Shown here: positions 4,335-22,586 of the stretch, in pieces | Layout of the letters: every line of letters starts with the position of its first letter | How positions within the stretch are numbered: the stretch's first letter is position 1 | NCBI RefSeq assembly: GCF_019464535.1 | Contig: NZ_CP080507.1 | Span: 600,001-632,000, forward strand | Source of the DNA: Horticoccus luteus | GTDB taxonomy: Bacteria; Verrucomicrobiota; Verrucomicrobiia; Opitutales; Opitutaceae | Length of the DNA: 32,000 nt | Direction of reading: 5' to 3' | Notes under the pieces: generated by a model | The model's database searches: none | What the model was told of the DNA's origin: nothing | What the model saw: only the letters and a program-made list of their open reading frames with translations | Program-made: the position numbers and the translations under genes

Positions 4335-4389
4335 CGGTGGAAAAACGCTACACGGGCGGGGCGGATAAACAATCCGATCTCGCATTGGG

Positions 4390-5889
<1,500 letters not shown>

Positions 5890-7348: not shown

Positions 7349-10300
7349 ATCTGCCGGCGTTGTGCATCCGGCGGCCGGTGATGACGTCGCTGCTCACCGC
7401 GGCGTTATGCGTGTTTGGCGTGATGGCTTACCGGCTGCTGCCGGTGAGCGATCTGCCCAACGTGGATTTTCCGACGATCGTGGTGTCGGCTTCGCTGCCG
7501 GGCGCCACGCCTGAGACGATGGCGTCGGCAGTCGCGACGCCGCTCGAACAGCAGTTTTCGACGATCGCCGGCATCGATTCGATGACGTCCACGAGCTCGC
7601 TCGGCTCCACGTCGATCACGTTGCAGTTCACGTTGGAGCGGAGCATCGATGCGGCGGCGCAGGACGTGCAGGCATCGATCGCCGCGGTGCAGCGCCTGCT
7701 GCCGCAGGACATGCCGGCGCCGCCTTCCTTCCGGAAGACCAACCCGGCCGATCAACCGGTGCTGTATCTGGCGCTGAGTTCGCCGACGCTGCCGCTTTCG
7801 GTGGTGGATGAATACGCGGAAGCGAATCTCGCGCAGCGCATTTCGACGGTGGAGGGCGTGGCGCAAGTGCAGGTGTTCGGTTCGCAGAAATACGCGTTGC
7901 GCGTGCAGCTCGATCCGCGCGCGCTCGCGAGCCGCGGCATCACGCTCGATGAAGTGCAGACGGCGCTGGCGGCGCACAACGTGAACCTGCCGACGGGCGT
8001 GCTCGACGGCAACCGGCAGGCGATGACGATCATCGCGACCGGGCAGCTCACGAGTGTGGCGGAGTTCAACCAGATCGTCGTCGCGTATCGCAATGGCGCG
8101 CCGGTGCGGCTCGGGCAGCTCGCGAAGGTGATCGACAGCGTGCAGGAAAACCGGGTCGCGAGCTGGTATTACGACCAGAACGGCGGCAACCGTGCGGTGG
8201 TGCTCTCGATCCAGCGGCAGCCGGGCACGAATACGGTGGAAGTGGTGCAGCGCGTGAAGGCGTTGATCCCGGCGTTCAGCGAACAACTGCCGGCGTCGGT
8301 GAAGCTCAACGTGCTCTTCGACCGCTCCACGACGGTGCGCGAGTCGGTGGACGACGTGCAGTTCACGCTGTTGCTTTCGATCGCGCTGGTGGTGCTGGTG
8401 ATCTTCATTTTTTTGCGCACGCTGACGGCGACCATCATTCCGGGCGTGGCGATTCCGATGGCGCTGCTGGGGACGTTCATCGCGATGTATTTCTTCGGCT
8501 ACACGCTGGATAATTTGTCGCTGCTCGCGCTCACGCTCTCGGTGGGCTTCGTCGTGGACGACGCGATCGTGATGCTGGAAAACATCGTGCGTTACATCGA
8601 GCAGGGCATGTCGGTGCGCGAGGCGGCGTTCAAAGGCGCCGGCGAAATTGGGTTCACGATTTTGTCGATGACGCTCTCGCTCGTGGCGGTGTTCATCCCG
8701 GTGCTCTTCATGGGCGGCATCCTCGGGCGGTTGCTGCATGAATTCGCGGTGACGATCACGGCATCGATTTTGGTGTCGGGCGTGGTGTCGCTGACGCTGA
8801 CGCCGATGTTGTGCAGCCGTTTTTTGAAACCGCACCGGGGGCATGACGCGACGAGGCATGGGAAACTCTACCAACTGAGCGAACGCGGCTTCGAGGCGAT
8901 GGTGGCGTTCTACGAGCGCACGCTGGGGCACGCGATGAAGCACCGGTTGCTCACCGTCTGCGTCGCGTTGGCGATGGTCGTGCTCACGGTCGTCGTCGCC
9001 CGGCAACTGCCGACGGGGTTCATCCCGACCGACGACACGGGCCAGATTTTCGCGTTCACCGAGGCGGCGCAGGATGTGTCGTTCGCGGAGATGACGGCGC
9101 ATCAAGAGGCGGCGGCGGCGGTGGTGGCGAAAAATCCCAACGTCGAAGCGTTCATGTCGGCGATCGGCGCGAGCAAATCGTCATCGACGGGCAACCAAGG
9201 GCGGATGTTTATGCGCCTCAAACCGCGCAATGAACGCCCGCCGGCGGCGGAGATCGTGCAGGATCTCCGGCACGAGTTGTCCGCGATCCCCGGCCTGAAG
9301 GCGTATCCGCAATTGCTGCCGCCGATCCGCATCGGCGGTTCGCTGACGAAGGCGTTGTATCAATTCACGTTGTTCGGCAGCGATCTGAAGGAGCTCTACG
9401 CCGCGGCGCAAAAGATGGAGGTGAAAATGCGCGGGATCGCCGGGTTGCAGGATGTGAACTCCGACTTGCAGATCTCAAATCCACAGTTGCGCGTGAACAT
9501 CAAGCGCGACCGGGCGGCGGCGCTCGGCATCACGCCGCAGCAGATCGAGGATGCGCTCTACAGCGCGTTTGGCTCGCGCCAGGTTTCCACGATCTACACG
9601 CCGACGAACCAGTATTACGTCATCATGGAGATGGCGCCGGATTTCCAGAAAACCCCGGAAGCGCTGGCGCAACTCTATCTCCGCAGCCGTGGCGGGAAAA
9701 CGGTGCCGCTCGACACCGTGGCGTCGCTCGATCGCTCGGTCGGCCCGTTGACCGTTAATCATCTGGGGCAGGTGCCGGCGGTGACGATTTCGTTCAACTT
9801 GCGACCTGGCGTATCGCTTGGCGAGGCGTCCAGCGCCATCACGGAGCTCGCGCGCAAGGAATTGCCGGCGACGATCAGCTATGGGTTTCAGGGCTCGGCC
9901 CAGGCGTTCGCGTCGTCGATGCGCGGGCTCGGCTTGCTACTCCTCATGGCGGTGCTCGTGATCTACATCGTGCTTGGGATTTTGTATGAGGATTTCATCC
10001 ATCCGCTGACGATCCTCTCGGGATTGCCGGCGGCGAGTTTCGGGGCGTTGGCGACGCTGTGGCTTTTCCACCAGGAGCTGAATGTGATGGGATACGTGGG
10101 CATCATCCTGCTCGTCGGCATCGTGAAGAAGAATGCGATCATGATGATCGATTTCGCGCTGGCGACGCGCGCGCAAGGGGAGATGTCCGCCGAGGTGGCG
10201 ATCAAGCGGGCGTGTGTCGTGCGCTTCCGGCCGATCATGATGACGACGTTCGCGGCGCTCGCCGGTGCGATTCCGATTGCGCTCGGCTTGGGCGCGGGCG

Positions 10301-10476
10301 CGGAATCGCGCCGCCCGCTGGGCCTCGCGGTGGTCGGCGGCCTCATCGTTTCGCAGATGCTGACGCTTTATATTACGCCGGTGATTTACGTGTATATGGA
10401 CAAATTCACCGCGCGCTTGCGGCGGCGGCCGACGCTCCCGCATTTGATGGAGCCGATCGAAGCCGGCGCGAAGTAG
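7345..10476 (+). CDS. RND (AcrB/MdtB-type, HAE1) inner-membrane efflux transporter
   Basis: 1043-aa ORF with a typical RND N-terminus (CIRRPVMTSLLTAAL..G..AY..LPVSDLPNVDFPTIVV), 12-TM topology, two large periplasmic loops, and conserved VGFVVDDAIVMLENI and GIVKKNAIMMIDFA segments. No outer-membrane factor gene follows it. Confidence 0.97.
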   Translation: MNLPALCIRRPVMTSLLTAALCVFGVMAYRLLPVSDLPNVDFPTIVVSASLPGATPETMASAVATPLEQQFSTIAGIDSMTSTSSLGSTSITLQFTLERSIDAAAQDVQASIAAVQRLLPQDMPAPPSFRKTNPADQPVLYLALSSPTLPLSVVDEYAEANLAQRISTVEGVAQVQVFGSQKYALRVQLDPRALASRGITLDEVQTALAAHNVNLPTGVLDGNRQAMTIIATGQLTSVAEFNQIVVAYRNGAPVRLGQLAKVIDSVQENRVASWYYDQNGGNRAVVLSIQRQPGTNTVEVVQRVKALIPAFSEQLPASVKLNVLFDRSTTVRESVDDVQFTLLLSIALVVLVIFIFLRTLTATIIPGVAIPMALLGTFIAMYFFGYTLDNLSLLALTLSVGFVVDDAIVMLENIVRYIEQGMSVREAAFKGAGEIGFTILSMTLSLVAVFIPVLFMGGILGRLLHEFAVTITASILVSGVVSLTLTPMLCSRFLKPHRGHDATRHGKLYQLSERGFEAMVAFYERTLGHAMKHRLLTVCVALAMVVLTVVVARQLPTGFIPTDDTGQIFAFTEAAQDVSFAEMTAHQEAAAAVVAKNPNVEAFMSAIGASKSSSTGNQGRMFMRLKPRNERPPAAEIVQDLRHELSAIPGLKAYPQLLPPIRIGGSLTKALYQFTLFGSDLKELYAAAQKMEVKMRGIAGLQDVNSDLQISNPQLRVNIKRDRAAALGITPQQIEDALYSAFGSRQVSTIYTPTNQYYVIMEMAPDFQKTPEALAQLYLRSRGGKTVPLDTVASLDRSVGPLTVNHLGQVPAVTISFNLRPGVSLGEASSAITELARKELPATISYGFQGSAQAFASSMRGLGLLLLMAVLVIYIVLGILYEDFIHPLTILSGLPAASFGALATLWLFHQELNVMGYVGIILLVGIVKKNAIMMIDFALATRAQGEMSAEVAIKRACVVRFRPIMMTTFAALAGAIPIALGLGAGAESRRPLGLAVVGGLIVSQMLTLYITPVIYVYMDKFTARLRRRPTLPHLMEPIEAGAK

Positions 10477-10727: not shown

Positions 10728-11870
10728 ATGTTTCATCTCATTGCACGTGTCTTAACGGTGGGTATTTTGGCCGCCGGGCTACTCGCCGGTCGCGCCTCCG
10801 CGGCGAAGCCTGGTGCCTCCACGGACGACGGCGGCACGCAGGTCCGGGCTGCACTCAAAGCTGCGATCTTCGTGACGAATCGCGCGGGTGCTGCCTATGA
10901 TGACAAGCTCGGCACGCTGGAAGATCTCGTGACCGGAGATGTGACGAACCAAGGGGTGTCGGTCATCAGCCGGGAGACGGCGATCAGCGCCGTCGGCTCG
11001 CTCGATCCCCAGGCGACGGAAAACAAACTCGATCAACTGCTCAACCAAAGCACGTCGGCCGTGCGGCTCGCGCAGACGTTGGGGGCGGACTATATTTTGC
11101 AGGTCACGCTGACGAGCGTGGGCACGAAGAAGAATTCGTTGAACGCCTACGGCGTGAACACGACGAACGAACAGCAGACGGTGCGCGTGGGCTACAAGAT
11201 TCTCGATGGCAGCACCGGAGCGAGTCTCAGCGCGGATACGGTCAAGGCGTCCCGCAGCGTGCAGCAGTCGAAAACGACGAGCGAGGACACCTCGGATGTC
11301 GTCAACGATTTGCTCGAAGAAGCGGCCCGGAAAGTGGCCGTGAGCCTGAAGCAGCGCATCGACCGGGGTGGGATCGCCGCACCGACGGCGGCGGCGACGC
11401 TCGCGACTCTGACGCTCCGCACGGAAGCAGCAGATCTCGTGATCCCGGACGTGCGGATCGGGCCGGACAACACCGTCACGATTTCCGAAAGCAAGTTCAA
11501 GGTGGTGCCACTCGCGGCGAGCGTCGAGGTGGACGGCATCGCGGTCGGCACGGCGCCGGGGGTGTTTCAAATCCGTCCGGGCCTGAGCAAGATTCGCGTG
11601 GTCCGTGAGGGCTTCGCGCCGTGGCAGCGCACCGTGAACGTGGTTAACGATCTCAAGCTCACGGCGACGCTCGTGATGGACGACGCGGGCTATGCGAGGT
11701 GGAAGGAGGCCACGGCGTTCCTGAACGGCTTGAAGAACGACGCGAAGCTCACGGATGCGGAGGTCAAGAGACTCGAGGGCGAGGCGCGGATGCTCGAGCA
11801 GAGTGGATTCAAGGTGGATACGAAGGACGCGCCGCACATCGAAGATCACCGGTCGATTTTCGGTCGCTGA
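10728..11870 (+). CDS. Secreted protein: CsgG/LpoB-like N-terminal domain plus C-terminal PEGA domain
   Basis: Signal peptide MFHLIARVLTVGILAAGLLAGRASAAKP. The N-domain follows the CsgG/LpoB/TolB-N pattern (IFVTNRAG...LEDLVTGDVTNQGVSVISRE...LGADYILQVTLTSVG). The C-terminal VEVDGIAVGTAPGVFQIRPGLSKIRVVREGFAPWQRTVNV matches the PEGA-domain pattern. Confidence 0.7.
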   Translation: MFHLIARVLTVGILAAGLLAGRASAAKPGASTDDGGTQVRAALKAAIFVTNRAGAAYDDKLGTLEDLVTGDVTNQGVSVISRETAISAVGSLDPQATENKLDQLLNQSTSAVRLAQTLGADYILQVTLTSVGTKKNSLNAYGVNTTNEQQTVRVGYKILDGSTGASLSADTVKASRSVQQSKTTSEDTSDVVNDLLEEAARKVAVSLKQRIDRGGIAAPTAAATLATLTLRTEAADLVIPDVRIGPDNTVTISESKFKVVPLAASVEVDGIAVGTAPGVFQIRPGLSKIRVVREGFAPWQRTVNVVNDLKLTATLVMDDAGYARWKEATAFLNGLKNDAKLTDAEVKRLEGEARMLEQSGFKVDTKDAPHIEDHRSIFGR

Positions 11871-11896
11871 ACGGAAACTACCTAACGTTTTTCGCC

Positions 11897-12790
11897 ATGA
11901 AAATCTTTCGTTTCGCCGCTCTGATCGGACTCTCCGCCGTGGTGCTCGCCACTGCGCTGGTGGCGCAGGACGCGCCGCAAAAAAAGAAGCTCGCGATCAC
12001 CAAGATCTCCGCCACGGACGCGCTCCGCACGCGGATGACGAAGCAGGGCGTCGCCCTTTCGCTCGATTCCGTGCTGCAGGCGCTCGAGTCGCAGGTTTAC
12101 GAGCGGATCGTCAACACGCGGCGCTTTGAGGTCCATGAACGTGCCGATGCGGATGCGCTCGCCACGGAGGCCGCGGCGACGGGCGGCACCTTCAGCTTTG
12201 AGGGCGTCGACTATTTGCTGACGATTCGCGTGGATTCGTTCAACGACCGCGTGGAGACGCGCAAGCTGGCCGCGCTGGGCAAGACGCTTCGAGCGCGGGT
12301 GATCGAACTCTCCGCGGTCGCCAAAGTGACCGAGGTGGCGACGCAGCGCGCCGTCGTCACGACGAACTTCCAAGTCACCCAGCGCGATGCGGAGAATCGC
12401 TCCGACAACACCACGGAGCGGGTCGGTGAGGCGAGCGATGGGCTGATGATCGCGGCGACGCGCGAAATGGCGCAAAAAATTGCGAGTCGTGCCGCCGATG
12501 CGATTTATCCGGCGCGCGTGCTCGCGAAACGCGACCGGCTGGTGACGATCAATCGCAACGATCAGTCCGGGGTGAAGGTGGGCCAGGTGTGGGAAGTCTT
12601 CGTGTTGGGCGATGAGCTGGTCGATCCCGACACGGGCGACAAGAGCCGCGAGGAAGTTTTGGTCGGCCAGGTAAAAATCAGCCGCATCACGCCGCAGAAT
12701 TCCCAAGCGGAGATTCTCGAAGACACCGGCATCGATCGCGGCGCCTTGGTGCGCCTGAAGGACGACGTCGCCGACGACACGGAAAGTTAA
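11897..12790 (+). CDS. Secreted CsgG/LpoB-like protein with C-terminal small beta-barrel (SH3/OB-like) domain
   Basis: ORF 11699..12790(+), trimmed to ATG 11897 (MKIFRFAALIGLSAVVLATALVAQDA, signal peptide). The pattern KKKLAITKISA...LESQVYERIVNTRRFEVHERAD...GVDYLLTIRVDSFN is the CsgG-family layout. The tail LVTINRNDQSGVKVGQVWEVFVLG...VGQVKISRITPQNSQAEIL looks like a small beta-barrel. Confidence 0.65.
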   Translation: MKIFRFAALIGLSAVVLATALVAQDAPQKKKLAITKISATDALRTRMTKQGVALSLDSVLQALESQVYERIVNTRRFEVHERADADALATEAAATGGTFSFEGVDYLLTIRVDSFNDRVETRKLAALGKTLRARVIELSAVAKVTEVATQRAVVTTNFQVTQRDAENRSDNTTERVGEASDGLMIAATREMAQKIASRAADAIYPARVLAKRDRLVTINRNDQSGVKVGQVWEVFVLGDELVDPDTGDKSREEVLVGQVKISRITPQNSQAEILEDTGIDRGALVRLKDDVADDTES

Positions 12791-12853: not shown

Positions 12854-14440
12854 ATGAAATCGACCATCACCTCTCGCGCGCGACTGCCGCTGATTGCCGG
12901 CGGCCTCGCGGTGCTTTTGTTCACGGCGGGTTGCCAGACCTATCAACAGCAGACCACGCAATTCACCTCCGCCACGCGGTCCGGCAGTCTCGCCACGGCG
13001 ATCACGACGATCAACAAGCAGGCGGATTCCCATCAAGGTTCCAAAGACGAAATCGTGTGGCGGCTGGAACAGGGCCTGAGCCTGCGCACCGGAGCGCTGG
13101 CGGACGCCGGGGAAGTGGCGGGGTTGATGCCTGCGCCCGCCCCGCAGAACGATCCGGCGAGCAAGGATGCCCCGATTCTGCCGCCACCCCCGCCACCCAC
13201 GCCGGACGAAGTGCGGGTTTACTTTCTTGAACAATCGATCGTGGCGTTCGACCAGGCCGAAGCGCGGGTGAACCACTACGAGGAGGAAGCGAAGGTCAAG
13301 GTCGGCAGCGAAGTGGGCGCGGCGTTCACCAACCAGGCCAATCTGCCTTACCGCGGCCGGGCCTATGACAAGGTGATGATGAACGCCTACAAGGCCATGG
13401 ATTACCTGCAACTCGGCAAGAAGGACGACGCGCGCGTCGAGCTCAACCGCTCGCTGCAGCGCCAGCGCGATGCCGTGGCGGACAACGAAAAGCGCATTGC
13501 CGAGGCCCAGAACATCGCCGCGCAGGCGAAGGCCGGGAAGGTGAAGACGGCGGAAGGCAAGAGTGCGGCTTACGATACGAACAAGGCGCTGAACGACGCG
13601 AAGACCGGCCCGGCGTTGCAGGCCGCGCTCAATGAATCACTCGCACCGATGAAGCCTTATGGCGACTACGTGAACCCCTACGCGGTGTTCTGGGACGGAC
13701 TGTTCTTCGTCAACCTCGGCGAAAATGGTTCCGACTGGGAACGCGCGCGCAAATCACTCGAACGCGCCGCGCAAATCGTCCCGGAGAATCCTTATCTCAA
13801 GCAGGACCTCGATCTCGCGACGCACGTCGCCGAGGGCAAGGCGCCGGAGAATCTCACCTACGTCATCTTCGAGACGGGCACCGGTCCCGCCCGTGATCAG
13901 GTGCAGATCAACATTCCCACGTTTCTGATCGGCGGCGGCCCGGCTTACGTCGGAGCCGCGTTTCCGAAGCTGAAATTCAACAACGACTACATCGCTTCGC
14001 TCGCCGTGTCGGGCGGCGACCAAACGTGCTCGACGTCCACCATCGCGAGCATGGACAGCATCGTGGCGAACGACTTCAAAAATGAGTGGCCCAGCGTGCT
14101 CACGAAGACGCTCGTGACCACGGCGACCAAGGCGATCACGCAAGCGGTCGTGGAGAAAACGGCCAACAACCGGGGCGGCATGTGGGGCGGCCTCGCAGCG
14201 AAAGTGCTGATGAGCGCAATCAACGCTTCGACCAACGTCGCCGATACGCGCACGTGGACGAGCCTGCCGAAGGAGTTCCAATATGCACGAATCACCACGC
14301 CCGCGGACCGCAAACTTGCCCTCAACGCCGGGGGTGTCGCGCACACCGTCGATCTCGTGCCGGGCTCCGTGAACATCGTCTACGTCAAGAGCACGTCGAC
14401 GACCGCTCCGCTCCTCGTCTCCCAATTCGCCCTCCGATGA
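12854..14440 (+). CDS. Large lipoprotein, TPR-like N-region, COG3014-like (tentative); module part A1
   Basis: ORF 12806..14440(+), trimmed to ATG 12854 (MKSTITSRARLPLIAGGLAVLLFTAGC, lipobox). It is visibly paralogous to 17693..18886. Shared motifs: Y-x-x-R-A-Y-[DE]-[KR]-x-M...Y...G...[DN]AR, [IV]FE-x-G-x-GP, and ADTRTWTSLP versus ADIRTWDNLP. The family name comes from memory only. Confidence 0.65.
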   Translation: MKSTITSRARLPLIAGGLAVLLFTAGCQTYQQQTTQFTSATRSGSLATAITTINKQADSHQGSKDEIVWRLEQGLSLRTGALADAGEVAGLMPAPAPQNDPASKDAPILPPPPPPTPDEVRVYFLEQSIVAFDQAEARVNHYEEEAKVKVGSEVGAAFTNQANLPYRGRAYDKVMMNAYKAMDYLQLGKKDDARVELNRSLQRQRDAVADNEKRIAEAQNIAAQAKAGKVKTAEGKSAAYDTNKALNDAKTGPALQAALNESLAPMKPYGDYVNPYAVFWDGLFFVNLGENGSDWERARKSLERAAQIVPENPYLKQDLDLATHVAEGKAPENLTYVIFETGTGPARDQVQINIPTFLIGGGPAYVGAAFPKLKFNNDYIASLAVSGGDQTCSTSTIASMDSIVANDFKNEWPSVLTKTLVTTATKAITQAVVEKTANNRGGMWGGLAAKVLMSAINASTNVADTRTWTSLPKEFQYARITTPADRKLALNAGGVAHTVDLVPGSVNIVYVKSTSTTAPLLVSQFALR

Positions 14441-14874
14441 AGAATTTCTCCCTCCGCATTCCGGTGGTTTCGCGCGGTCGCGCACTGCTGGCCGTCGCCG
14501 TGGGGCTGCTCGCCGGCTGTGCGACCAACGTTAACACTGTGGAGCGCGCCCAACCGCAGGCTGCTCCCACCTACATCGCCGACAAGCGCGTCGTCACCGA
14601 CAACACACTTGCCGGCATGGTGCGGGTTGTCGCGATCAACCAGTCGACCGTGTCGGGCAACCTGCTGAAGGTGCAAGCGACCATCGAGAATAGAAAGAAC
14701 TCGCTGCGCACGCTGAACTACAAGTTCGAGTGGATCGACCGCGATGGCATGGCCATCAACTCGCCCAACGAAACTTGGAAATCCGTCCAACTCCAAGGCC
14801 GCGAGACGACGACCATTGCCACCGTCGCCATCAATCCGCGCGCCGTCGATTTCGTCCTCAAACTTCGCGAATAA
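14437..14874 (+). CDS. YcfL/DUF1425-like small lipoprotein; module part B1
   Basis: ORF 14086..14874(+), trimmed to ATG 14437, which overlaps the A1 stop as ATGA. Lipoprotein signal MKNFSLRIPVVSRGRALLAVAVGLLAGC. The core LLKVQATIENRKNSLRTLNYKFEWIDRDGMAI...TTTIATVA...AVDFVLKLR matches the E. coli YcfL pattern (..VHYRFYWYDARGLE..). Confidence 0.7.
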   Translation: MKNFSLRIPVVSRGRALLAVAVGLLAGCATNVNTVERAQPQAAPTYIADKRVVTDNTLAGMVRVVAINQSTVSGNLLKVQATIENRKNSLRTLNYKFEWIDRDGMAINSPNETWKSVQLQGRETTTIATVAINPRAVDFVLKLRE

Positions 14875-14886
14875 CCGTCTCTCTTT

Positions 14887-15492
14887 ATGAATCCTCCACA
14901 TTTCTTCCGTCCGCTGCTCGGGGCTTGCTCCGCGTCGGTCCTCTTCTTCGCCGGCTGCGCCACAGCGCCAGAGACGCGCACCATCGATTCGAAGGGGCCC
15001 GAAGCGCTTAACACCGCGAGCATCAACTCGCAGGACTGGGCCAGCGCCGCCGACCAGCTCGTGCAATCGTTGCTCACGTCCAACGCCCTCGACCGCGTCC
15101 GCACGCAACCGGCCGTGCTCGCCGTCGACCGCATCATCAATAACACCACGCTCTCAGTGGACACGGACTTGCTCATCAAGAAAATCCGCGTGGCGTTGAC
15201 GCAGACCGGCAAGGTCGCGGTGACGAATACCATGGGCCTGGGCGAACGTGCCGTGGTGGCTTCCGAAGCGGCCGAAATGGAAGAAATGACGACCGGCAAG
15301 AAACAAAAACTAAAGGCGCCAGACTTCACGCTATACGGGAAACTCATCCAGCAGACCGACCGCGCGAAGAGCGTCACCCAAAACACCTACACGTTTCAAA
15401 TGTCGCTGGTGGACGTGAAGAGCGGGCTCACGGTGTGGGAAGAGGAGCGCGAAATCGCGAAGCAGACGAAGCGGTCCAGCGTCGGCTGGTAA
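14887..15492 (+). CDS. LpoB/COG3417-like lipoprotein (penicillin-binding-protein-activator family); module part C1
   Basis: Lipobox SVLFFAGC. It shows the LpoB-like layout: SQDWASAADQLVQSLL, PAVLAVDRIINNTTLSVDTDLLIKKIRVALTQTGKV, PDFTLYGKLIQQ, YTFQMSLVDVKSGLTVWEEEREIAKQ. It starts 12 nt after B1. Confidence 0.75.
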   Translation: MNPPHFFRPLLGACSASVLFFAGCATAPETRTIDSKGPEALNTASINSQDWASAADQLVQSLLTSNALDRVRTQPAVLAVDRIINNTTLSVDTDLLIKKIRVALTQTGKVAVTNTMGLGERAVVASEAAEMEEMTTGKKQKLKAPDFTLYGKLIQQTDRAKSVTQNTYTFQMSLVDVKSGLTVWEEEREIAKQTKRSSVGW

Positions 15493-15567
15493 CGCGACGC
15501 CTACGCGGATCGCCCTGTCCGCCAAGCGCGTGAGATTATCAAGGGAGGCGTGAGCGAAAGGAGTATC

Positions 15568-15598
15568 AACCCCGGCCGTGGTGCCGGGGTTTTTCTTT
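15568..15598 (+). terminator. Rho-independent terminator ending the first lipoprotein operon
   Basis: AACCCCGGC-cgtggt-GCCGGGGTT forms a 9-bp stem with a 6-nt loop. It runs into TTTTTCTTT and lies 76 nt after the C1 stop, between convergent genes. Confidence 0.8.
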
Positions 15599-15699
15599 GG
15601 CTGAATGACGCGACGACAAGGTGCCGGCGTGTGCGGCAGGCACGGGCGCGAGCGCCGGCGATGGGCCGATGCCGGGAGTGGCGCGGTGCCTGGGCGCCG

Positions 15700-16041
15700 T
15701 CACTTCGTGAGCGGTCGCCCCTGTTCGTCGACTTCCGTTTCCACGGGCACTTGGATAGTGCGCCCGTCGGAGGTGGTCTCGGTGCGCCAGGTGCGCACAA
15801 TCCGGTGCTCGTTGGCAAACGGGGATTTTGCCGCGGCGCTCGCTCCCTCAGCAGCGCCCACCGCCGCTCCTGCGACGGTGCCGGCCACGGCGCCAACGAC
15901 GGTTCCAGCGGCTTCGCCAAGCGCGGGGCCGGGATGGTTGGGGTTGGTGATCCGGCTTTCCGCGGAGCGGGTGGCGCACCCGGAAAGCAAGGCGATCCCG
16001 AACGAAAAGGCAGCGGCGAGTGCGGTGGACCGAGTGGTCAT
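15700..16041 (-). CDS. Small glycine-zipper lipoprotein (SlyB / 17-kDa-antigen-like)
   Basis: ORF 15700..16083(-), trimmed to the ATG at 16039-16041 (MTTRSTALAAAFSFGIALLSGC, lipobox). It carries the GxxxG ladder GTVVGAVAGTVAGAAVGAAEG. Third codon positions are G/C-rich in this frame. The overlapping + strand ORF 15605..16240 has no export signal and is Arg-rich. Confidence 0.7.
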   Translation of the reverse strand: MTTRSTALAAAFSFGIALLSGCATRSAESRITNPNHPGPALGEAAGTVVGAVAGTVAGAAVGAAEGASAAAKSPFANEHRIVRTWRTETTSDGRTIQVPVETEVDEQGRPLTK

Positions 16042-16167
16042 GGAAGTGACTGGTGAGCATGGGCCTGCCGCGGATTTCGACAAGCGTGAAGCGTGGATTC
16101 TGCCGGAAGGGTGGGGGGAAATCTCCGTCCGCTGGTGGAGTTTGTGCTCTGGGCTGCTATTTTCCCC

Positions 16168-16196
16168 GCCAACTCGCGTTCCGAGCGCGAGTTGGC
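16168..16196. repeat. Perfect 11-bp inverted repeat GCCAACTCGCG-N7-CGCGAGTTGGC (candidate operator or 5' UTR hairpin)
   Basis: Read directly from the sequence. It sits in the divergent intergenic region between the two glycine-zipper genes, 73 nt upstream of ATG 16269. Confidence 0.6.
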
Positions 16197-16268
16197 ATCC
16201 TCACTGGACCACGCCTTGTTTGGTGAAACCTCATGAGTAACATCCTGTCTCCGAAACTTCCCAACCGC

Positions 16269-16880
16269 ATGAAAACGCTTCTCACCCTCAGCCTTGCCCT
16301 TGGCTTGTTCGCCTCGGCGGACGCGCAAGCGTTTCGGCCGCATTGGGGGCATGCGGGACACGGGGGAGCGCATTATCACGGCGGGGCGTTTCATCACGGC
16401 TCGCATCGTGGCTGGGCGCGGCCGTCTTTCTCCTTTTACTACTCCGACCACGGTTGGAATCCGGCGCCGTTATATTCGTATCGTTATGCCAGTGCGCCGG
16501 TTTACGTCTCGTCGGACTACGTGTCGCCCGCACCCAGCCGGGCGGCGTCGGGGTTGTTTTGGGGCGGGTTGCTGGGGGCAATTGTAGGCAACAACAGCGG
16601 CAGCCTCGGCCACAATGCGTGGCGCGGAGCCGCCTACGGCGCGGGTGCGGGTTTGCTGCTCGGCGCGCTGAGCGACCATGCGGCTTCCGAACGCGAGGCG
16701 GCGGCGGCCCGCACGGTATCTTACGTGCCCACGCCCTCCAGCCCGGCGCCGGCCATCGCTGCCGCGAACGTCGAAGACTCCGCTGCCGTCCGTGATCAGA
16801 CGCCCGACCCGGCGCCCCGCGTGCGGCGGCGTCCGGCGTCCGCGATGAGTTCGGCGAATTCCCTGTTCGGCCGCAACTGA
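16269..16880 (+). CDS. Secreted His/Gly-rich glycine-zipper protein
   Basis: ORF 16233..16880(+), with the start taken at ATG 16269 (MKTLLTLSLALGLFASADAQA, signal peptide). The mature N-terminus FRPHWGHAGHGGAHYHGGAFHHGSHRGW has 8 His. A glycine-zipper core follows (GLFWGGLLGAIVGNNSGSLGHNAWRGAAYGAGAGLLLGAL), then a Pro/Ala-rich tail. Confidence 0.7.
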   Translation: MKTLLTLSLALGLFASADAQAFRPHWGHAGHGGAHYHGGAFHHGSHRGWARPSFSFYYSDHGWNPAPLYSYRYASAPVYVSSDYVSPAPSRAASGLFWGGLLGAIVGNNSGSLGHNAWRGAAYGAGAGLLLGALSDHAASEREAAAARTVSYVPTPSSPAPAIAAANVEDSAAVRDQTPDPAPRVRRRPASAMSSANSLFGRN

Positions 16881-16905
16881 CGCAGCCCTGGGCCAACTTT
16901 TTCCC

Positions 16906-17541
16906 ATGATGAACCTCACCACTCGAATCGTGCCCCTTTCCTGCTTGGCGGCGCTGGCGGCGTTTTCCGCCGGCTGCACGTCGTCCGGCGTCAAAAATCC
17001 TTCCGGCGTGCCCGTGACCGAGATGAAAGCCGATGAACGCGGCTTCGTCGCCGGCACCGGCGTCGAGTCGCAGGATCTCGTGGCCGTCACCGACAAGATG
17101 GCGCGCAGCATTCTCGCGATTCCGGAAATCGCGCAGGCCAAAACGCCGCCGCGCATCGCCCTCGATCCGGTGATCAACGAGACGCGTTTCCCGATCAACA
17201 AGGACATCTTCAACGATCGCATCCGCATCCAGCTCAACACCAAGGCGGCGGGCAAAGTGCGGTTTCTCGCGCGCGATCGCATGAAGACCCTCGAGCACGA
17301 ACGTGAGCTCAAGCAATCCGGCCAGGTCACGGCGAGCTCCGATCCGAACGTCGTCGAGTTTCGCGGCGCGGATTACTTCCTGACCGGCAAACTCGCCGGC
17401 ATGTCCACGCGCACCTCCGCCGGCACCAGCGACTACGTCTTGTATAGTTTCCAACTGATCGACGCGCGGACGAGCGAAGTGGTGTGGGAAGATGCGTCGG
17501 AGATCAAAAAGCAGGGTCTGGAAGACGCCGCCTATCGGTGA
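16906..17541 (+). CDS. LpoB/COG3417-like lipoprotein, second paralog; module part C2
   Basis: Lipobox AAFSAGC. It aligns by eye with C1: SQDLVAVTDKMARSIL, PRIALDPVINETRFPINKDIFNDRIRIQLNTKAAGKV, ADYFLTGKLAG, YVLYSFQLIDARTSEVVWEDASEIKKQG. It starts 25 nt after the preceding gene. Confidence 0.75.
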   Translation: MMNLTTRIVPLSCLAALAAFSAGCTSSGVKNPSGVPVTEMKADERGFVAGTGVESQDLVAVTDKMARSILAIPEIAQAKTPPRIALDPVINETRFPINKDIFNDRIRIQLNTKAAGKVRFLARDRMKTLEHERELKQSGQVTASSDPNVVEFRGADYFLTGKLAGMSTRTSAGTSDYVLYSFQLIDARTSEVVWEDASEIKKQGLEDAAYR

Positions 17542-17692
17542 GCCCTGCGGCGCGGCTTCGTCGGCGCGGCTCTTCCTCGATCAACGAAGGGCCGGGCGCG
17601 ATGAGTCGCCCGGGTGAATTTATCGTCGGAAGAGCAGGCGAGCCTCGTCGCGGGGCTCGCCGTTCTGTCTGACCCAAAACGTTTCCTCTGCT

Positions 17693-18886
17693 GTGCAACT
17701 GCGTTTCCCGAGTTTTCTTTCCGGCTCCCTGCTGGCGGCGGCCATCCTGCTTGCGGGCTGTGCCACCACGCCGCAAGCGCCGCGCTTCGCGCTCACGGGC
17801 GATCCCGTGATCGATGGCAACAACGAGCAGGCCGCCGGTCCCAAGCAGGATCGCGTGCTGTGGGATTACCGCATCGCGGCGTCCGCGATGCGCCTGGGGC
17901 GCTTCGATGAGGCCAAGGCCAAACTCGACGACGCCATTCTCACAATGGGCGGCATCATCGCCGATTCCGCCGACGCCAAGCGCGCGCGCAGTCTCTTCGC
18001 CGCGGAGAGCGCGAAGACGTTCATCGGCGAACCGTATGAACGGGCGATGGCGTATTATTATCGCGGCATCCTCTATTGGCGCGACGGCGAGCCGGACAAC
18101 GCGCGCGCCTGTTTTCGCTCGGCGGAGTTTATCGACAGCGATGCCGACAACGCCGAATACAAGGGCGACTACGTGCTCTGCGATTACCTCGATGGCTACG
18201 TGACGGCCCGCCTCGGCGGCGATGGTTCCGATGCGCGCCAGCGGGCCGAGCGCAACCGCCATCGGCCGATGCCGCCCTACGATCTCAAGGCCAATGTGCT
18301 CTGCTTCGTCGAATACGGTCGCGGTCCGCGCAAATACGGTGGCGGCGAATACGGCGAGCAGTTGCGTTTTCAAGTCACCGATTCGCCGGCGCATTACGCG
18401 CGCCTCACGGTCGAAGGTCGCACCTACGAACTGCCGCCTTACGATGATCTCAATTTCCAAGCGACGACCCGCGGCGGCCGCGTGATGGACTACATTCTCG
18501 GGCACAAGGCCGTCTTCAAGCAGGGCGCGGACACGGTCGGCAACGTCGGCCTGCTCGGCGCGGCCGCGGCGTCCTCGGGCATTTATCGGCGCGACGGTTC
18601 GAAGAATCACGACGCCGAAAACGCCACCGTCGCCCTCGCGGCGATCGGCCTGATCAGCAAGCTGGCCGCGGCGGCGACGACGCCGCACGCCGACATCCGC
18701 ACGTGGGACAACCTGCCGCAGCGCCTGAGCTTTGCGGCGTTGCGCCTCGCGCCGGGCGAACATCGCGGCGTGCTGGAATTTCTCGACGAACGGCACCATG
18801 TTCTGGGTGATCGCTCCCGGGAAATCGTGCTGCAAGTCAACGCCGAGGGTGACACCGTCGTGTTTCTCAGCGAACTAAAATCCTGA
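17693..18886 (+). CDS. Large lipoprotein, COG3014-like (tentative), paralog of 12854..14440; module part A2
   Basis: GTG start at 17693 gives a lipoprotein signal (QLRFPSFLSGSLLAAAILLAGC). It shares these segments with A1: GEPYERAMAYYYRGILYWRDGEPDNARACFRSA, VLCFVEYGRGPRK, and ADIRTWDNLPQRLSFAAL. Confidence 0.65.
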   Translation: MQLRFPSFLSGSLLAAAILLAGCATTPQAPRFALTGDPVIDGNNEQAAGPKQDRVLWDYRIAASAMRLGRFDEAKAKLDDAILTMGGIIADSADAKRARSLFAAESAKTFIGEPYERAMAYYYRGILYWRDGEPDNARACFRSAEFIDSDADNAEYKGDYVLCDYLDGYVTARLGGDGSDARQRAERNRHRPMPPYDLKANVLCFVEYGRGPRKYGGGEYGEQLRFQVTDSPAHYARLTVEGRTYELPPYDDLNFQATTRGGRVMDYILGHKAVFKQGADTVGNVGLLGAAAASSGIYRRDGSKNHDAENATVALAAIGLISKLAAAATTPHADIRTWDNLPQRLSFAALRLAPGEHRGVLEFLDERHHVLGDRSREIVLQVNAEGDTVVFLSELKS

Positions 18887-18912
18887 CCGCAAGTCTCACC
18901 GCTTCTGACGCC

Positions 18913-19332
18913 ATGAACACCAAGCCAATCCTCGTCCTCGCTCTCGCCGCCACCCTGGCCTTTCTCACCGGTTGTGCCTCCGAGCCCGGCCCGTATGCGC
19001 CGCAGGACACCACGAAATTCACCGTCGAGAACACCGATAAATTCGTGCTCCTCGACAAAGCCACGCAAACCTCCGTGACCTGCACAGGCTTGCAGGAGCG
19101 CACGCTCTCCGACGGCCGCTTCGAAGTGGTGGCCAACATCAAGAACCGCGAAGCGCGCCGCATTCAGGTGCAGGTCAATTGTGTGTTTAAGGACGAACAA
19201 GGTTTCTCGACGGGCGACGAAACGCCGTTTCAGACCTTGATCCTCGCGGAAAACGCGACGGAAGCCGTGCGTTTCACCTCGGCGAATGCCAACGCGCACA
19301 AATACACGATCCGCGTTCGCCAGGCGCGCTGA
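18913..19332 (+). CDS. YcfL/DUF1425-like small lipoprotein, second paralog; module part B2
   Basis: Lipobox LAFLTGC. The core GRFEVVANIKNREARRIQVQVNCVFKDEQGF...ATEAVRFTSANANAHKYTIRVR has the same layout as B1 and YcfL. It starts 26 nt after A2. Confidence 0.6.
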   Translation: MNTKPILVLALAATLAFLTGCASEPGPYAPQDTTKFTVENTDKFVLLDKATQTSVTCTGLQERTLSDGRFEVVANIKNREARRIQVQVNCVFKDEQGFSTGDETPFQTLILAENATEAVRFTSANANAHKYTIRVRQAR

Positions 19333-19557
19333 GGGAAAGCAGGGAAACGGCGCGGCGCGCGCGCTCCGCATTGACGAAAACCTGACGGCTTCCACTGCGG
19401 CGATCGGGCTCACGCGCATCCCTTCGGGATGCGCAAGGCGTGAGCGTATCGCGCGCACGGGCGCGCCACCGCCTCCGCGCAAAGGCGGCCCGCAAAAATG
19501 CGGCGCGAGTGGCGAAATTTCCGGTCAAATCCACGTTAACTCACATCCCCTTGTCCT

Positions 19558-20553
19558 ATGAAAATCCGTGCTTTTCTCTCCGCCGCGTTCGCCTCCGCTC
19601 TCTTCACCAGCGCCTGGGCTCAGAGCTCCACGCGCGCGCCGGAGCCGCCGGTGCCGGTCGTGACTGCGCCCAGCCAAGGGGCGGTCGTGGCCCCGCCAAC
19701 GGAAAACCAGCGCTTGTATGGAGCCGATGCAGCGCCGCTCGTTTCGCGCGAAGCGGCGGATAACGTGGTGCGGAAATTCCGCGCCACCTACGCGACCGGC
19801 CAAGCGCCGCGCGTGGTGATTTATGTGAACCGCCAGCTCGTCGATTTCGACAGCGGGCTGAAGCTCACGAAGCACACGGAGTATTACGATCGCACCGAGA
19901 CGAAGACCAGTAGCGGGATATCCTCCACCGTGACGCCGCCCGCGCCTGCCGCGGGCGCATCGACGACAGGCGCAGACGCCGCGACGAACGCTCCGGCCAA
20001 CGCCGGCTCCGTCACCGCGCCGGTGCCGCCGCCGGCGTCGACCAACGGCACGTCGAGCGCCACGACGCGCACGAGCGGGCAGAACACTTACACGATGGAG
20101 AACAAAACCCCCGCGACCCTGGCGGACCGCCAGACCGTGCGCGATGTGGAGCGCCTCTTCGGCCGGGTCTTTCGCAATGCGGGCGCGCGCCTGGCGGATC
20201 AAAAGGTGGCGACCGACGTGCTGGGCAATGAACCAGGTCAACGGCTCGTCGGCACGCAGGCGGCGCAGGAACGCGCAGCGTTGAGCAAGGTGGCGGACAT
20301 CGCGGTGGAAGTGCTCATTTCGAGCCGCAACCTCACCGTGCCGGGCATCACGGGCGCGCAAGTTTACACCGTGCCGGACATCCAGGCGACGGCGATCCGG
20401 CTCTCGGATGCGGCGATCGTGGGGCAGGCGAGCGCGAGCGATATTTTGGGCCGCGATCAGGAAGCGGCGCGGCTGGTGCGCCAGTTCGACGTCAACGACA
20501 TCACGGAAGCCGTCGCGCTCGCGTTGCTCGAAGACATGACGACGGGCCAGTGA
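19558..20553 (+). CDS. Secreted two-domain protein with S/T/P/A-rich linker; C-terminal domain CsgG/LpoB-like (tentative)
   Basis: Signal peptide MKIRAFLSAAFASALFTSAWAQS. A central low-complexity linker is present (TSSGISSTVTPPAPAAGASTTGADAATNAPANAGSVTAPVPPPASTNGTSS). The C-domain VERLFGRVFRNAGARLADQK...VADIAVEVLISSRN...ATAIRLSDAAIVGQA follows the same pattern as the 10728 and 11897 gene products. Confidence 0.6.
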   Translation: MKIRAFLSAAFASALFTSAWAQSSTRAPEPPVPVVTAPSQGAVVAPPTENQRLYGADAAPLVSREAADNVVRKFRATYATGQAPRVVIYVNRQLVDFDSGLKLTKHTEYYDRTETKTSSGISSTVTPPAPAAGASTTGADAATNAPANAGSVTAPVPPPASTNGTSSATTRTSGQNTYTMENKTPATLADRQTVRDVERLFGRVFRNAGARLADQKVATDVLGNEPGQRLVGTQAAQERAALSKVADIAVEVLISSRNLTVPGITGAQVYTVPDIQATAIRLSDAAIVGQASASDILGRDQEAARLVRQFDVNDITEAVALALLEDMTTGQ

Positions 20554-20761: not shown

Positions 20762-22123
20762 TTATTTGAGCGACTTCATCCGGCGGCGACGGATGGCCAC
20801 CCAGCCGAGCATCGCCCCGCCGAGCAACGCGGCGTAGGTCGACGGCTCGGGAATCGCGGACGCGGTCCAAGTGAGGATCTGGCTGTTGGAGCCACTCCCG
20901 CTGGTGCTGAAGCTGCCGTAGCTGCTCCAGCTCGAATTATTGATCGTGAACGACCCCGTGATCGAACCGCCGCTGCCGTTGGCCACGATCGTCCACGAAT
21001 GGTTGGAATTCCAAAACGCATTGGAGCCTGGAGCGACCGCCGGGTCGATGAATTCGGGAGCGAGGAGGCCGCTGGTCGCGATGAGCGACGCGCCGCTGGA
21101 AAGCGTGATCAAATCCCAATTGGATCCGGCGGTGCCGCCGGTGTTGTCCGTCAGGCTATCGAGCTGCCAATTGAACGTTGAGCCGGAATCGAAGGTGAGA
21201 GTGCCACCATTCGCGACCGTCAGATTACCGGGACTGTTGCCGGGGGCGAGCGAGCCCCCGCTGCCGATGGTGACTGTGCCGCCCAAGCTGCCCGTGCCGC
21301 TGATGGTCCCAGTGAACACGGAGGCGGCTCCGCCGGTCAACGTGCCACCGGAGGCGACATTGATGTTGTTGGCGACCGTGAGTCCGCCGCCGACGGCCAA
21401 GGTGCCACCGGAGTTCACGATGGCCGAGCCGGAGCCGAGGGCGCTGTTGTGGCCGGTGCTAAGCGTCCCGGCATTGATCGTGATCCCGGCTGTAAAACCA
21501 TTCGCGGCGTCGAGGACAAGCGTGCCGGATCCACTTTTAATTATGCCGCCGTGATGCGATCCATCGAAGTCGTTTATGGCCGATGAAATGTGAATTGTGC
21601 CGCCGCTTGCTACATTTACTATGCCATTGGAATATAGGGATAAAGATAGCAAGCCAGTCGAGGTAGTTGGTACTAGGCTGATTGTTCCTGAGTTTGCGTT
21701 GTCAGTGATGTTCCAAGTTGTAGGCGAACCACCGCCACTTCCAGAGCCCGCACCAAGAACAAGTGCATTACTGGTCGCGCCTCCGTTAGAAATAGTAGTG
21801 GTGTTCGTATCATTGAAGTTATTCTGAAATGTGATGCTAGTTGCATATATATTAACACTCGAAATTGTCATAGTAGTCTTTGGTGCGGCGCTATTTGTGC
21901 CTGTGCCGGCAAATATGAAGTCATATGTATTATTGCGCTTGCTGGCGGAGTTGAGATTAATTGCAGCGGCTGTGTTGTTATCGTACCAAAAATTACTGCT
22001 GCTTGTCCAACTAGACCCAGACGCACTATTCCATTGTAAGCTATCGCCGTTATTTTGAGCATTTGTCGCAGGCGCAAACGTAAGAACGATTAGCGTCAGT
22101 ACCACGGCCATTAGGCGCGACAT
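20762..22123 (-). CDS. PEP-CTERM-anchored surface protein with autotransporter-associated beta-strand (PATR) repeats
   Basis: ORF 20762..22165(-). The start is probably the ATG at 22121-22123 (MSRLMAVVLTLIVLTFAPATNAQ); 22165 and 22111 are alternatives. PATR-like repeats are present (IIKSGSGTLVLDAANGFTAGITINAGTL; GGTLAVGGGLTVANNINVASGGTL). The C-terminal sorting signal IPEPSTYAALLGGAMLGWVAIRRRR is a PEP motif, a TM helix and an Arg cluster. Confidence 0.85.
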   Translation of the reverse strand: MSRLMAVVLTLIVLTFAPATNAQNNGDSLQWNSASGSSWTSSSNFWYDNNTAAAINLNSASKRNNTYDFIFAGTGTNSAAPKTTMTISSVNIYATSITFQNNFNDTNTTTISNGGATSNALVLGAGSGSGGGSPTTWNITDNANSGTISLVPTTSTGLLSLSLYSNGIVNVASGGTIHISSAINDFDGSHHGGIIKSGSGTLVLDAANGFTAGITINAGTLSTGHNSALGSGSAIVNSGGTLAVGGGLTVANNINVASGGTLTGGAASVFTGTISGTGSLGGTVTIGSGGSLAPGNSPGNLTVANGGTLTFDSGSTFNWQLDSLTDNTGGTAGSNWDLITLSSGASLIATSGLLAPEFIDPAVAPGSNAFWNSNHSWTIVANGSGGSITGSFTINNSSWSSYGSFSTSGSGSNSQILTWTASAIPEPSTYAALLGGAMLGWVAIRRRRMKSLK

Positions 22124-22509
22124 TTGAATGGATGCTTTGTCTAGAGAAGAAGCCGCGGCGTTCATAGGCGTGAAGGGGTAAAGTTAGAGGTGTGTGAGTG
22201 TAAATTCCTAAAGCGAATCAAATGGGGCTTGATTAGAAACCGCAGGTCCGGGCAAAAGCTCGCAACCTACAACGCAATAACACGGGGCTAGGACATGGGG
22301 GGCGATTGAAAATAGGCCAAGTGTCTCACTTGGCAGCAACGTCAAAATGCGTATTTCATTGTCCGGGAGGAGAACAGTCCGGTGTCGGAGTTGAATTCCC
22401 CTTCTGCTATTAGCTCGGTGCGTGAGAGACTAACTCCACGTAGGGAAACCTGCGCGCAGAGACCGGCGTTGACACGTTCCGCAATCAGCCAAGGGTTCGG
22501 GCCGCGTCG

Positions 22510-22586
22510 CGGGGTGTAGCTTAGCCTGGTAGAGCGCCTGGTTTGGGACCAGGAGGTCGCAGGTTCGAATCCTGTCGCCCCGACCA
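22510..22586 (+). tRNA. tRNA-Pro (anticodon UGG)
   Basis: The 77-nt sequence CGGGGTGTAGCTTAGCCTGGTAGAGCGCCTGGTTTGGGACCAGGAGGTCGCAGGTTCGAATCCTGTCGCCCCGACCA folds as a cloverleaf. The acceptor stem CGGGGTG/CGCCCCG has 7 bp. The anticodon stem CCTGG/CCAGG closes the loop TTTGGGA, giving anticodon TGG. The T-loop is GGTTCGAATCC and CCA is encoded. It closely resembles E. coli tRNA-Pro(UGG). Confidence 0.95.

Follow-up and report, generated by a model that had tools for sequence, protein, structure and literature searches.

Two neighboring lipoprotein gene units in Horticoccus luteus that probably represent two ancient types of a TPR, YcfL and LpoB family module

Introduction

How does a single bacterial locus come to hold two sets of the same three lipoprotein genes, and is one set a local copy of the other? 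The question is raised by a stretch of 32,000 nucleotides from Horticoccus luteus (Verrucomicrobiota, Opitutaceae; contig NZ_CP080507.1, positions 600,001 to 632,000), referred to here as the window. Each set encodes a large tetratricopeptide repeat (TPR) lipoprotein (A), a small DUF1425/YcfL-type lipoprotein (B), and a lipoprotein of the LpoB family (C). An earlier, sequence-only reading of the window took the two sets to be deeply diverged copies of one three-gene module in cyclically permuted order, A1-B1-C1 followed by C2-A2-B2. The comparative analysis described here points instead to two distinct and ancient operon types, which have very probably been brought together secondarily, and only in the subclade to which the window belongs.

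To our knowledge, nearly all that is known of LpoB concerns its activation of penicillin-binding protein 1B (PBP1B) in enterobacteria, and the YcfL/DUF1425 and COG3014 families have no established function. The locus and its relatives unite the TPR, YcfL, and LpoB families in what appears to be one conserved module. There are at least two ancient types of it, a single genome can have both, and type 2 is nearly always accompanied by a fourth protein of no assigned family. The finding is comparative and descriptive, and it provides a real and useful comparative framework. It defines a gene set in culturable hosts (Lysobacter and Opitutaceae isolates) in which the roles of LpoB-like lipoproteins outside Enterobacteria can be approached, and the two units offer a natural comparison of cognate and non-cognate partners when interfaces are mapped.

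The two units and the kinship of their genes

The two units and the elements between them are listed below in their order along the window, with the strand and the supporting match.

10728-11870, + strand: unit 1, first gene; secreted PEGA-domain protein of 380 amino acids with a signal-peptidase-I type signal (PEGA PF08308, E 1.7e-6)
11894-12790, + strand: unit 1, second gene; secreted protein of 298 amino acids, possibly CsgG/FlgT-like (weak matches of orthologs)
12854-14440, + strand: A1; putative COG3014-type TPR lipoprotein of 528 amino acids (weak TPR matches; NCBI naming of orthologs)
14437-14874, + strand: B1; DUF1425/YcfL-type lipoprotein of 145 amino acids (PF07233, E 1.9e-24)
14887-15492, + strand: C1; LpoB-family lipoprotein of 201 amino acids (PF13036, E 3.3e-27)
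15568-15591, + strand: terminator-like hairpin and T-run after C1 (9-bp stem with 7 GC pairs, then TTTCTTT; consensus match only)
15700-16083, - strand: divergent Gly-zipper lipoprotein of 127 amino acids (lipobox LLSGC, Gly/Ala-rich core)
16233-16880, + strand: unit 2, first gene; secreted Gly-zipper protein, open reading frame of 215 amino acids (Gly-zipper_YMGG, E 5.9e-7; Gly-zipper_Omp, E 6.5e-6)
16906-17541, + strand: C2; divergent LpoB-family lipoprotein of 211 amino acids (PF13036, E 4.4e-20)
17637-17661, + strand: GC-rich hairpin in the C2-A2 spacer, 11-bp stem and weak T tail (possible attenuator or terminator)
17693-18886, + strand: A2; second-type TPR lipoprotein of 397 amino acids (TPR_2, E 1.3e-7)
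18913-19332, + strand: B2; divergent DUF1425/YcfL-type lipoprotein of 139 amino acids (PF07233, E 1.8e-9)
19558-20553, + strand: unit 2, last gene; secreted protein of 331 amino acids (no Pfam or NCBIfam family)

The six open reading frames of the two trios, which are separated by 1.4 kb and lie on the same strand, have the coordinates and lengths first read from the sequence. In all six a lipobox cysteine ends the signal peptide (..TAGC in A1, LLAGC in B1, FFAGC in C1, FSAGC in C2, LLAGC in A2, and LTGC in B2). The true start of the Gly-zipper protein of unit 2 is probably the methionine of MKTLL, at residue 13 of the open reading frame.

The proposal that the genes form three paralogous pairs is borne out by alignment. 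C1 and C2 are 25% identical over 152 residues (BLASTP, E 3e-15), and profiles built from their ortholog alignments match over 175 columns with an hhalign score of 98.4% (E 5.9e-15). Both pass the Pfam LpoB family (PF13036, gathering cut-off 22.3 bits), C1 with 95.6 and C2 with 72.5 bits. B1 and B2 share 21% identity over 98 residues (BLASTP, E 3e-5), their profiles score 93.5% over 127 columns (hhalign, E 2.4e-7), and both pass DUF1425 (PF07233, cut-off 28.3 bits) at 85.8 and 37.8 bits, respectively. A1 and A2 are about 18% identical with only local BLASTP matches (E 8e-4), and their homology is convincing at the level of profiles only, where the orthologs align over 223-226 columns at 94-96% (hhalign, E 1.5e-7 and 2.9e-9). 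All remaining hhalign matches between families are limited to signal peptides.

A merged alignment of the A1 and A2 families that includes distant members contains 11 invariant columns (G168, Y179, A193, E340, G342, P345, D401, D464, R466, W468, and P472 in A1 numbering), which take in the motifs ExGxxP and ADxRxWxxxP. Among the motifs that had been read by eye, AD[TI]RTW..LP, those of the C pair, and IxNR[KE] hold, whereas YxxRAY[DE] and [IV]FE do not, as A2 has PYERAM and FVEYGRGP at these places. The extra length of A1, put at about 130 residues, is accounted for by two inserts, one proline-rich (residues ~85-125) and one charged and helical (~197-275). Translational coupling of A and B had also been proposed, and it is a sound reading for unit 1, where the ATG of B1 lies across the stop of A1 in a 4-nucleotide ATGA overlap (14437-14440) that orthologs keep; C1 follows B1 after 12 nucleotides. 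The reading fails for unit 2, in which A2 and B2 do not overlap and are 26 nucleotides apart.

In the AlphaFold2 model of A2, two Gly/Ala-rich helices (274-294 and 306-328) directly precede the invariant ADxRxWxxLP, and A1 has a matching part. Residues ~274-330 of A2 resemble a glycine-zipper hairpin, and two separate Gly-zipper genes sit between the units. No fusion of A to LpoB or DUF1425 was found among unusually long A2-type proteins. One distant A2-type protein of 541 amino acids (P0319) carries a PDZ insert (PDZ_6, E 5e-15).

Two types probably older than the locus

The age of the split between the two sets is best seen from the range of the second. With a hidden Markov model built on A2 orthologs, 1,638 clusters at 50% identity are retrieved at E <= 1e-3, of which 557 have E <= 1e-30; one such cluster comes from Lysobacter soli. 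A set of 80 distant loci was then drawn from a metagenome scan seeded with distant A2-type members; most have 35-50% identity to the Lysobacter-type protein, and five are closer (68-92%). The A proteins of these loci have a median score of 160.6 bits when compared with A2 and of 0 when compared with A1, and 81 of 81 favor A2. For the C proteins the scores are 107.3 bits with C2 and 27.2 with C1, and again all of them (69 of 69) favor the type-2 protein. A2 and C2 thus resemble Lysobacter-type homologs far more than they resemble A1 and C1, which argues that the split predates the lineage and did not occur in place.

From these sequence comparisons, A2 and C2 appear to have had one history and A1 and C1 another, and the two would have split before type 2 spread to different lineages. 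Distance matrices for type-2 A, B, C, and the 331-residue protein are correlated with r of 0.92-0.95 overall and 0.69-0.85 among the distant loci, values reached by none of 300 permutations. The correlation fits inheritance as a unit, and a shared species phylogeny adds to it. A common history of the genes of module 2 is therefore supported, by A and C together and by all four correlated matrices, and so is the view that the duplication is old with both copies kept, since the pairs diverged deeply and each gene set persists in many genomes.

The distribution of the units within Verrucomicrobiota was followed in species-representative genomes scanned with A2-type sequences, using the best 80 of 555 confirmed matches. 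These 80 are from Verrucomicrobiota only, with titles mainly of Opitutaceae, Opitutae, and Opitutus, and also of Pedosphaera, subdivision 3, and Verrucomicrobiia. A locus was called as having unit 2 alone where at least 8 kb of sequence was available upstream of C2; 33 loci had too little flank. Among the 47 informative loci, 40 have unit 2 with no unit 1 nearby, and the units are adjacent in 7 loci. Unit 1 also occurs by itself: Oleiharenicola lentus and Rariglobus hedericola have the PEGA gene, a gene of 296 codons, A1, B1, and C1, and no second trio within 10 kb.

Four related Opitutaceae contigs (L001-L004) show the double arrangement in full: a Trypsin_2 and PEGA protein, a protein of ~297 amino acids, A1, B1, C1, the Gly-zipper gene on the minus strand, a further gene, C2, A2, B2, and a protein of 245-290 amino acids. 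The further gene before C2 is an annotated plus-strand Gly-zipper gene in L003-L004 and an unannotated minus-strand gene of 179 codons in L001-L002. In Rariglobus, unit 1 is followed by MatE, PF1765-like, Cys_Met_Meta_PP, and Exo_endo_phos genes and, two genes beyond these, by CinA, and the same set of five in the same relative order comes after unit 2 in L001-L004. The simplest reading of these shared downstream genes is that a block carrying unit 2 was inserted between them and unit 1 in the window's subclade. Two ancient operon types made neighbors secondarily, in this subclade only, is accordingly the history that we regard as highly probable on the sequence record, and the idea of local copies of one module gives way to it.

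Unit 1, the canonical type

Judged by its gene order and family matches, unit 1 is of the canonical type, with the order of Campylobacter jejuni cj0089-91, in which genes for a large TPR, a small DUF1425, and an LpoB-like lipoprotein follow one another. This order is found in unit 1 and not in unit 2. The C. jejuni lipoproteins have 453, 122, and 207 amino acids and their genes are co-transcribed (PMC3100323), and Cj0091, like Helicobacter pylori HP1457, is described as an LpoB homolog (PMC11394524). The trio is already known, then, as a Campylobacter operon, and unit 1 is a further member of that kind. It differs from cj0089-91 in having two conserved secreted proteins upstream and the divergent Gly-zipper gene, and in its longer A protein with the two inserts.

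The family assignment of A1 comes from its orthologs at 61-62% identity, which NCBI names 'COG3014 family protein'. In NCBIfam and Pfam scans A1 itself has TPR matches only, and A2 is tied to COG3014 only by way of its profile homology to A1. The B1 profile matches two DUF1425 structures in the PDB, 3o0l (E 1.2e-7) and 4gio (E 1.5e-3); the latter, named only 'Putative lipoprotein' in the database, we take to be C. jejuni Cj0090. C1 reaches 106.7 bits on TIGR02722, just under the equivalog cut-off of 110.55 bits, and matches E. coli LpoB (2mii) weakly, with an E of 0.069.

Unit 1 as a whole runs from the PEGA protein through the CsgG/FlgT-like protein of ~297 residues to A1, B1, and C1 (10728-15492), with the divergent Gly-zipper gene after it, so it is larger than the three-gene module first proposed. 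In all unit-1 loci examined, A1 is preceded by a PEGA gene, and a gene of the 298-residue family is always between the two. The N-terminal part of the PEGA protein has weak matches to FlgT_M, GNA1162-like, LptE, and LpoB families. The 298-residue protein of the window has no Pfam match; its orthologs score 20.8, 17.8, and 12.9 bits on CsgG (PF03783), the best (E 2.7e-4) lying exactly at the gathering cut-off of 20.8 bits, and show faint FlgT_C matches, which together give only a hint that the protein is CsgG/FlgT-like.

Orthologs of the divergent Gly-zipper lipoprotein, annotated as Gly-zipper_YMGG, come after C1 in L001-L004, L085, and L086. The gene directly follows C1 in Rariglobus and stands two genes further on in Oleiharenicola. 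The hairpin at 15568-15591 is likely the end of the unit-1 transcript, and with the hairpin at 17637-17661 it suggests separate transcripts, both elements being consensus matches only.

In L001-L004 the PEGA orthologs have 668-670 amino acids and include a Trypsin_2 domain (for example L001:2484-4496 and L003:2479-4485). This domain is absent from the 380-residue protein of the window and from the Oleiharenicola and Rariglobus versions. Together with the PDZ insert of P0319, these trypsin-domain orthologs are a hint that the units may be connected with proteolysis in the periplasm or with the binding of C-terminal peptides.

Unit 2 and its fourth protein

Unit 2 consists of the Gly-zipper protein, C2, A2, B2, and the 331-residue protein (16233-20553), and open reading frame calling with jackhmmer finds this to be the usual arrangement in Verrucomicrobial loci. 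The Gly-zipper protein is represented by 69 open reading frames upstream of C2 across 84 Verrucomicrobial loci, and a comparable gene is present in only 10 of 55 distant loci. The 331-residue family, in turn, comes after B2 in the majority of loci, Verrucomicrobial and distant alike. On this distribution the conserved core of unit 2 would be C, A, and B with a fourth secreted protein, joined in Verrucomicrobia by the Gly-zipper protein, and here too three genes are too few to describe the unit.

The order of the core is not fixed. With E standing for the 331-residue family, Verrucomicrobial loci read CABE in 53 cases, CBEA in 5, and CABEA in 1, and distant loci read CABE in 27, CBEA in 8, and ACBE in 2. 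The position of A varies, so that what looked like a cyclic permutation of unit 1 is one state of a mobile A around a C-B-E core. Some type-2 loci have two A2-type genes, as in L050 (7230-8348 and 9941-11164, the CABEA case) and in L118 (5722-7116 and 7306-8568, a tandem pair); such duplicates may mark stages in a move of A to another place in the unit. The C2-A2 spacer is 151 nucleotides long in the window and about 35 in L001-L004, which makes the hairpin at 17637-17661 a lineage-specific element and not a conserved one.

In each test against a canonical family, the proteins of module 2 score lower than those of module 1 or not at all, which fits co-divergence of the whole module. C2, which passes PF13036, reaches 65.4 bits on TIGR02722, well below the cut-off, and has no sequence match in the PDB, E. 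coli LpoB included. B2 has no PDB sequence match even by profile, neither to 3o0l nor to 4gio. Unit 2 therefore stands apart from cj0089-91 in its order, in its fourth conserved gene, and in the lack of a sequence match of B2 and C2 to the canonical structures. In the AlphaFold2 model of A2 (mean predicted local distance difference test score, pLDDT, of 71.6), the N-terminal half is TPR-like and the C-terminal domain consists of β-strands and helices. The model has no Foldseek match at E <= 0.001, its best ones being generic TPR proteins at E > 0.02.

Neither the window copy of the 331-residue protein nor five orthologs match any Pfam or NCBIfam family. Its AlphaFold2 model (pLDDT 65.3) finds the C-terminal domain of LpoB (4q6l) as its best Foldseek match, with E 5.5e-3, probability 0.99, and a target-normalized TM score of 0.44. 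Further matches are to HpaA, PelC, CsgG, and GNA1162, which belong to one fold class and are weak (E 5.5e-3 to 0.1). An LpoB/PelC/CsgG-like fold is thus weakly supported for the predicted structure, and against C1 and C2 profiles the protein stays under 20% in hhalign. PelC, CsgG, and GNA1162 (DUF799) are outer-membrane-associated lipoproteins with an LpoB/TolB-N-like fold, and some of them form rings. The 331- and 298-residue proteins differ from these in having ordinary signal peptides with no lipobox; the likeness is weak, and consists of the structural matches of the one and of the orthologs of the other that touch the CsgG cut-off. It gives a hint that each unit may hold several subunits of the LpoB/CsgG fold.

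Two candidate relationships of the 331-residue protein were considered and dropped. Foldseek matches to BubCD were dismissed as an unrelated ubiquitin-like system. A fourth paralogous pair, formed with the 298-residue protein, is unsupported by sequence, since BLASTP among the 380-, 298-, and 331-residue proteins finds nothing and the ortholog profiles score under 20%. Residues ~117-165 of the 331-residue protein are a low-complexity Ser/Thr/Pro/Ala-rich insert inside a predicted β-hairpin; the insert varies in length, with orthologs of 245-350 amino acids, most of them 276-331.

Type 2, with its fourth protein, variable order, and wide range, was not found described in the literature that we searched and appears to be undescribed. 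The only neighbors conserved at distant type-2 units are a small Gly-rich protein (10-12 loci) and, in a few loci, sigma/anti-sigma-like genes.

Possible function

The proteins of the two units are exported and mostly lipid-anchored, and they form two co-inherited sets. Each unit may encode its own membrane-anchored periplasmic lipoprotein complex, in which A would act as a TPR scaffold that holds B and C together with at least one more subunit of the LpoB/CsgG fold. Such complexes could position or regulate peptidoglycan-remodeling enzymes and in this way keep the outer membrane connected to the cell wall. If the two types serve different partners, they would not be redundant.

Full-text literature searches on COG3014, DUF1425, YcfL, COG5633, and COG3417 returned no functional study of the module, and a role is suggested by analogy with relatives. 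LpoB activates PBP1B in E. coli (as cited in PMC11394524). In H. pylori, cells that lack HP0018, described as a homolog of Cj0089, have an altered shape and form outer-membrane vesicles in chains; AmiA and MltD co-immunoprecipitate with HP0018 (PMC11394524). In C. jejuni, Cj0091 is found in the outer-membrane fraction and Cj0089 in the inner-membrane fraction, and the efflux regulator CmeR controls cj0089-91 (PMC3100323). The window, L001-L004, and Rariglobus each have a gene for a LysM protein close to unit 1. A role in envelope and peptidoglycan maintenance is favored because of the activation of PBP1B by LpoB, the phenotype and partners of HP0018, the fractions of Cj0089 and Cj0091, and the LysM gene nearby; we hold it tentatively, at somewhat less than even odds. 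A bolder proposal, that the type-2 unit encodes a widespread and undescribed envelope machine, a lipoprotein assembly of several subunits with a dedicated partner, parallel to the cj0089-91-type complex, we consider speculative and rather unlikely. If it were true, the LpoB family would ancestrally be a subunit of such assemblies, and the activation of PBP1B in enterobacteria a late specialization.

Taken as a whole, two ancient types that became neighbors secondarily and that encode envelope complexes is the best explanation of the locus, to which we assign a probability of roughly 0.6. Several observations weigh against it. The distant B proteins are too divergent to place, with 41 of 58 leaning to B2 by about 11 to 6 bits, and the co-occurrence of units 1 and 2 is judged from the neighborhoods of loci. 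The functional leads all come from relatives outside Verrucomicrobia, and the link of A1 and A2 to Cj0089 and HP0018 consists of NCBI naming, gene order, and the matches of B and C. Both C proteins fall under the LpoB equivalog cut-off, with a similarity to E. coli LpoB that is marginal for C1 and absent for C2. The fold assigned to the 331-residue protein comes from a model of pLDDT 65 and Foldseek matches that all have E > 0.001. Lastly, the conserved neighbors of type-2 units include no gene for a peptidoglycan synthase or hydrolase.

Alternative explanations

The best surviving alternative concerns the route by which the units met. Unit 2 could have passed by horizontal transfer from Proteobacteria to Verrucomicrobia, or in reverse, so that the apparent paralogs would be xenologs. 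Type-2 A proteins do occur in Lysobacter, a gammaproteobacterium, and on many unassigned metagenome contigs at 35-47% identity, and the genome position of unit 2 differs among Opitutaceae. Any transfer would be old, however, given that type 2 is spread across Verrucomicrobiota (Opitutaceae, Pedosphaera, subdivision 3, and Verrucomicrobiia), and annotated loci have no mobile-element genes beside the unit. We regard such a transfer as possible but unlikely. It is compatible with two ancient types and differs from the history given above in route only.

A second alternative is strict orthology: C1, C2, or both would correspond to E. coli LpoB and activate a class A PBP, with A and B as accessories to the activation. 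In its favor, C1 and C2 lie well above the Pfam cut-off for LpoB, and C1, at 106.7 of 110.55 bits, comes close to TIGR02722; in E. coli, ycfL adjoins lpoB. B1 and B2 pass the Pfam cut-off for DUF1425 (YcfL), and all four are lipoproteins as in E. coli. Both C proteins nevertheless stay below the equivalog cut-off, and in pairwise comparison with E. coli LpoB only C1 has a match, at the E of 0.069 given above. Their linkers also look short: from the lipidated cysteine to the folded domain they span ~25-35 residues, estimated by eye, whereas the disordered linker of E. coli LpoB has about 55 and the first ~50 residues of the 2mii chain lie outside the aligned domain. LpoB and UB2H, its docking domain on PBP1B, are reported to be confined to some Gammaproteobacteria (Typas et al. 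2010), and we know of no COG3014 partner in E. coli. Orthology in this strict sense seems doubtful.

An equally doubtful alternative is that the proteins of each unit assemble into an oligomeric ring like that of PelC, CsgG, or the flagellar H-ring protein FlgT, located at the inner face of the outer membrane. A surface polymer or appendage would be exported through this ring as through a funnel, or held by it as by a structural collar. Several proteins per unit do appear to belong to the LpoB/PelC/CsgG/GNA1162 fold class, as seen in the structural matches of the 331-residue model to LpoB, PelC, CsgG, HpaA, and GNA1162, in the weak CsgG and FlgT_C matches of the 298-residue orthologs, and in those of the PEGA protein to FlgT_M, LptE, and LpoB. 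Gly-zipper proteins are adjacent, and clusters of CsgG-like, GNA1162 (DUF799), and DUF4810 lipoproteins are similar in make-up. Yet all fold and family matches of the accessory proteins are weak: Foldseek E values exceed 1e-3, and Pfam scores reach the cut-offs at best. In the 331-residue model, the long hairpins are polar and of low confidence and do not look like transmembrane strands, and genes for polymer synthesis, porins, or secretion are not conserved beside the units.

The weakest alternative, a tandem duplication within this lineage in which one copy was rearranged to C-A-B and both diverged fast, has the closeness and shared strand of the trios and the retention of the whole block in several related contigs in its favor, but it is very improbable and already contradicted, as A2 and C2 are much closer to distant non-Verrucomicrobial homologs than to A1 and C1, most Verrucomicrobial loci have unit 2 and not unit 1, unit 1 also stands alone, and the accessory genes of each unit have no detectable similarity to those of the other.

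Surrounding sequence

The nearest relatives of the proteins encoded in the window are in Opitutus, Opitutaceae, and Opitutae genomes. Three further features flank the units.

3462-5969, - strand: LysM protein gene
5981-7348 and 7345-10476, + strand: RND efflux pair, an HlyD-type membrane-fusion protein and AcrB (1037 bits)
20762-22165, - strand: PEP-CTERM/PATR-repeat protein gene

No PBP gene is found within the 32-kb window. The RND pair (5981-10476) sits between the LysM gene and the PEGA gene, a place where related loci have no pump, and it therefore looks like a local insertion. It was considered as an echo of the regulation of cj0089-91 by CmeR and set aside as probably a coincidence, the pump being absent from related loci. 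GC content falls from ~0.65 to 0.55 over the PEP-CTERM/PATR gene and the next kilobase (20762-23000). GC skew is close to zero at 12-21 kb, whereas on either side (1-9 kb and 23-32 kb) it mostly lies between +0.1 and +0.28.

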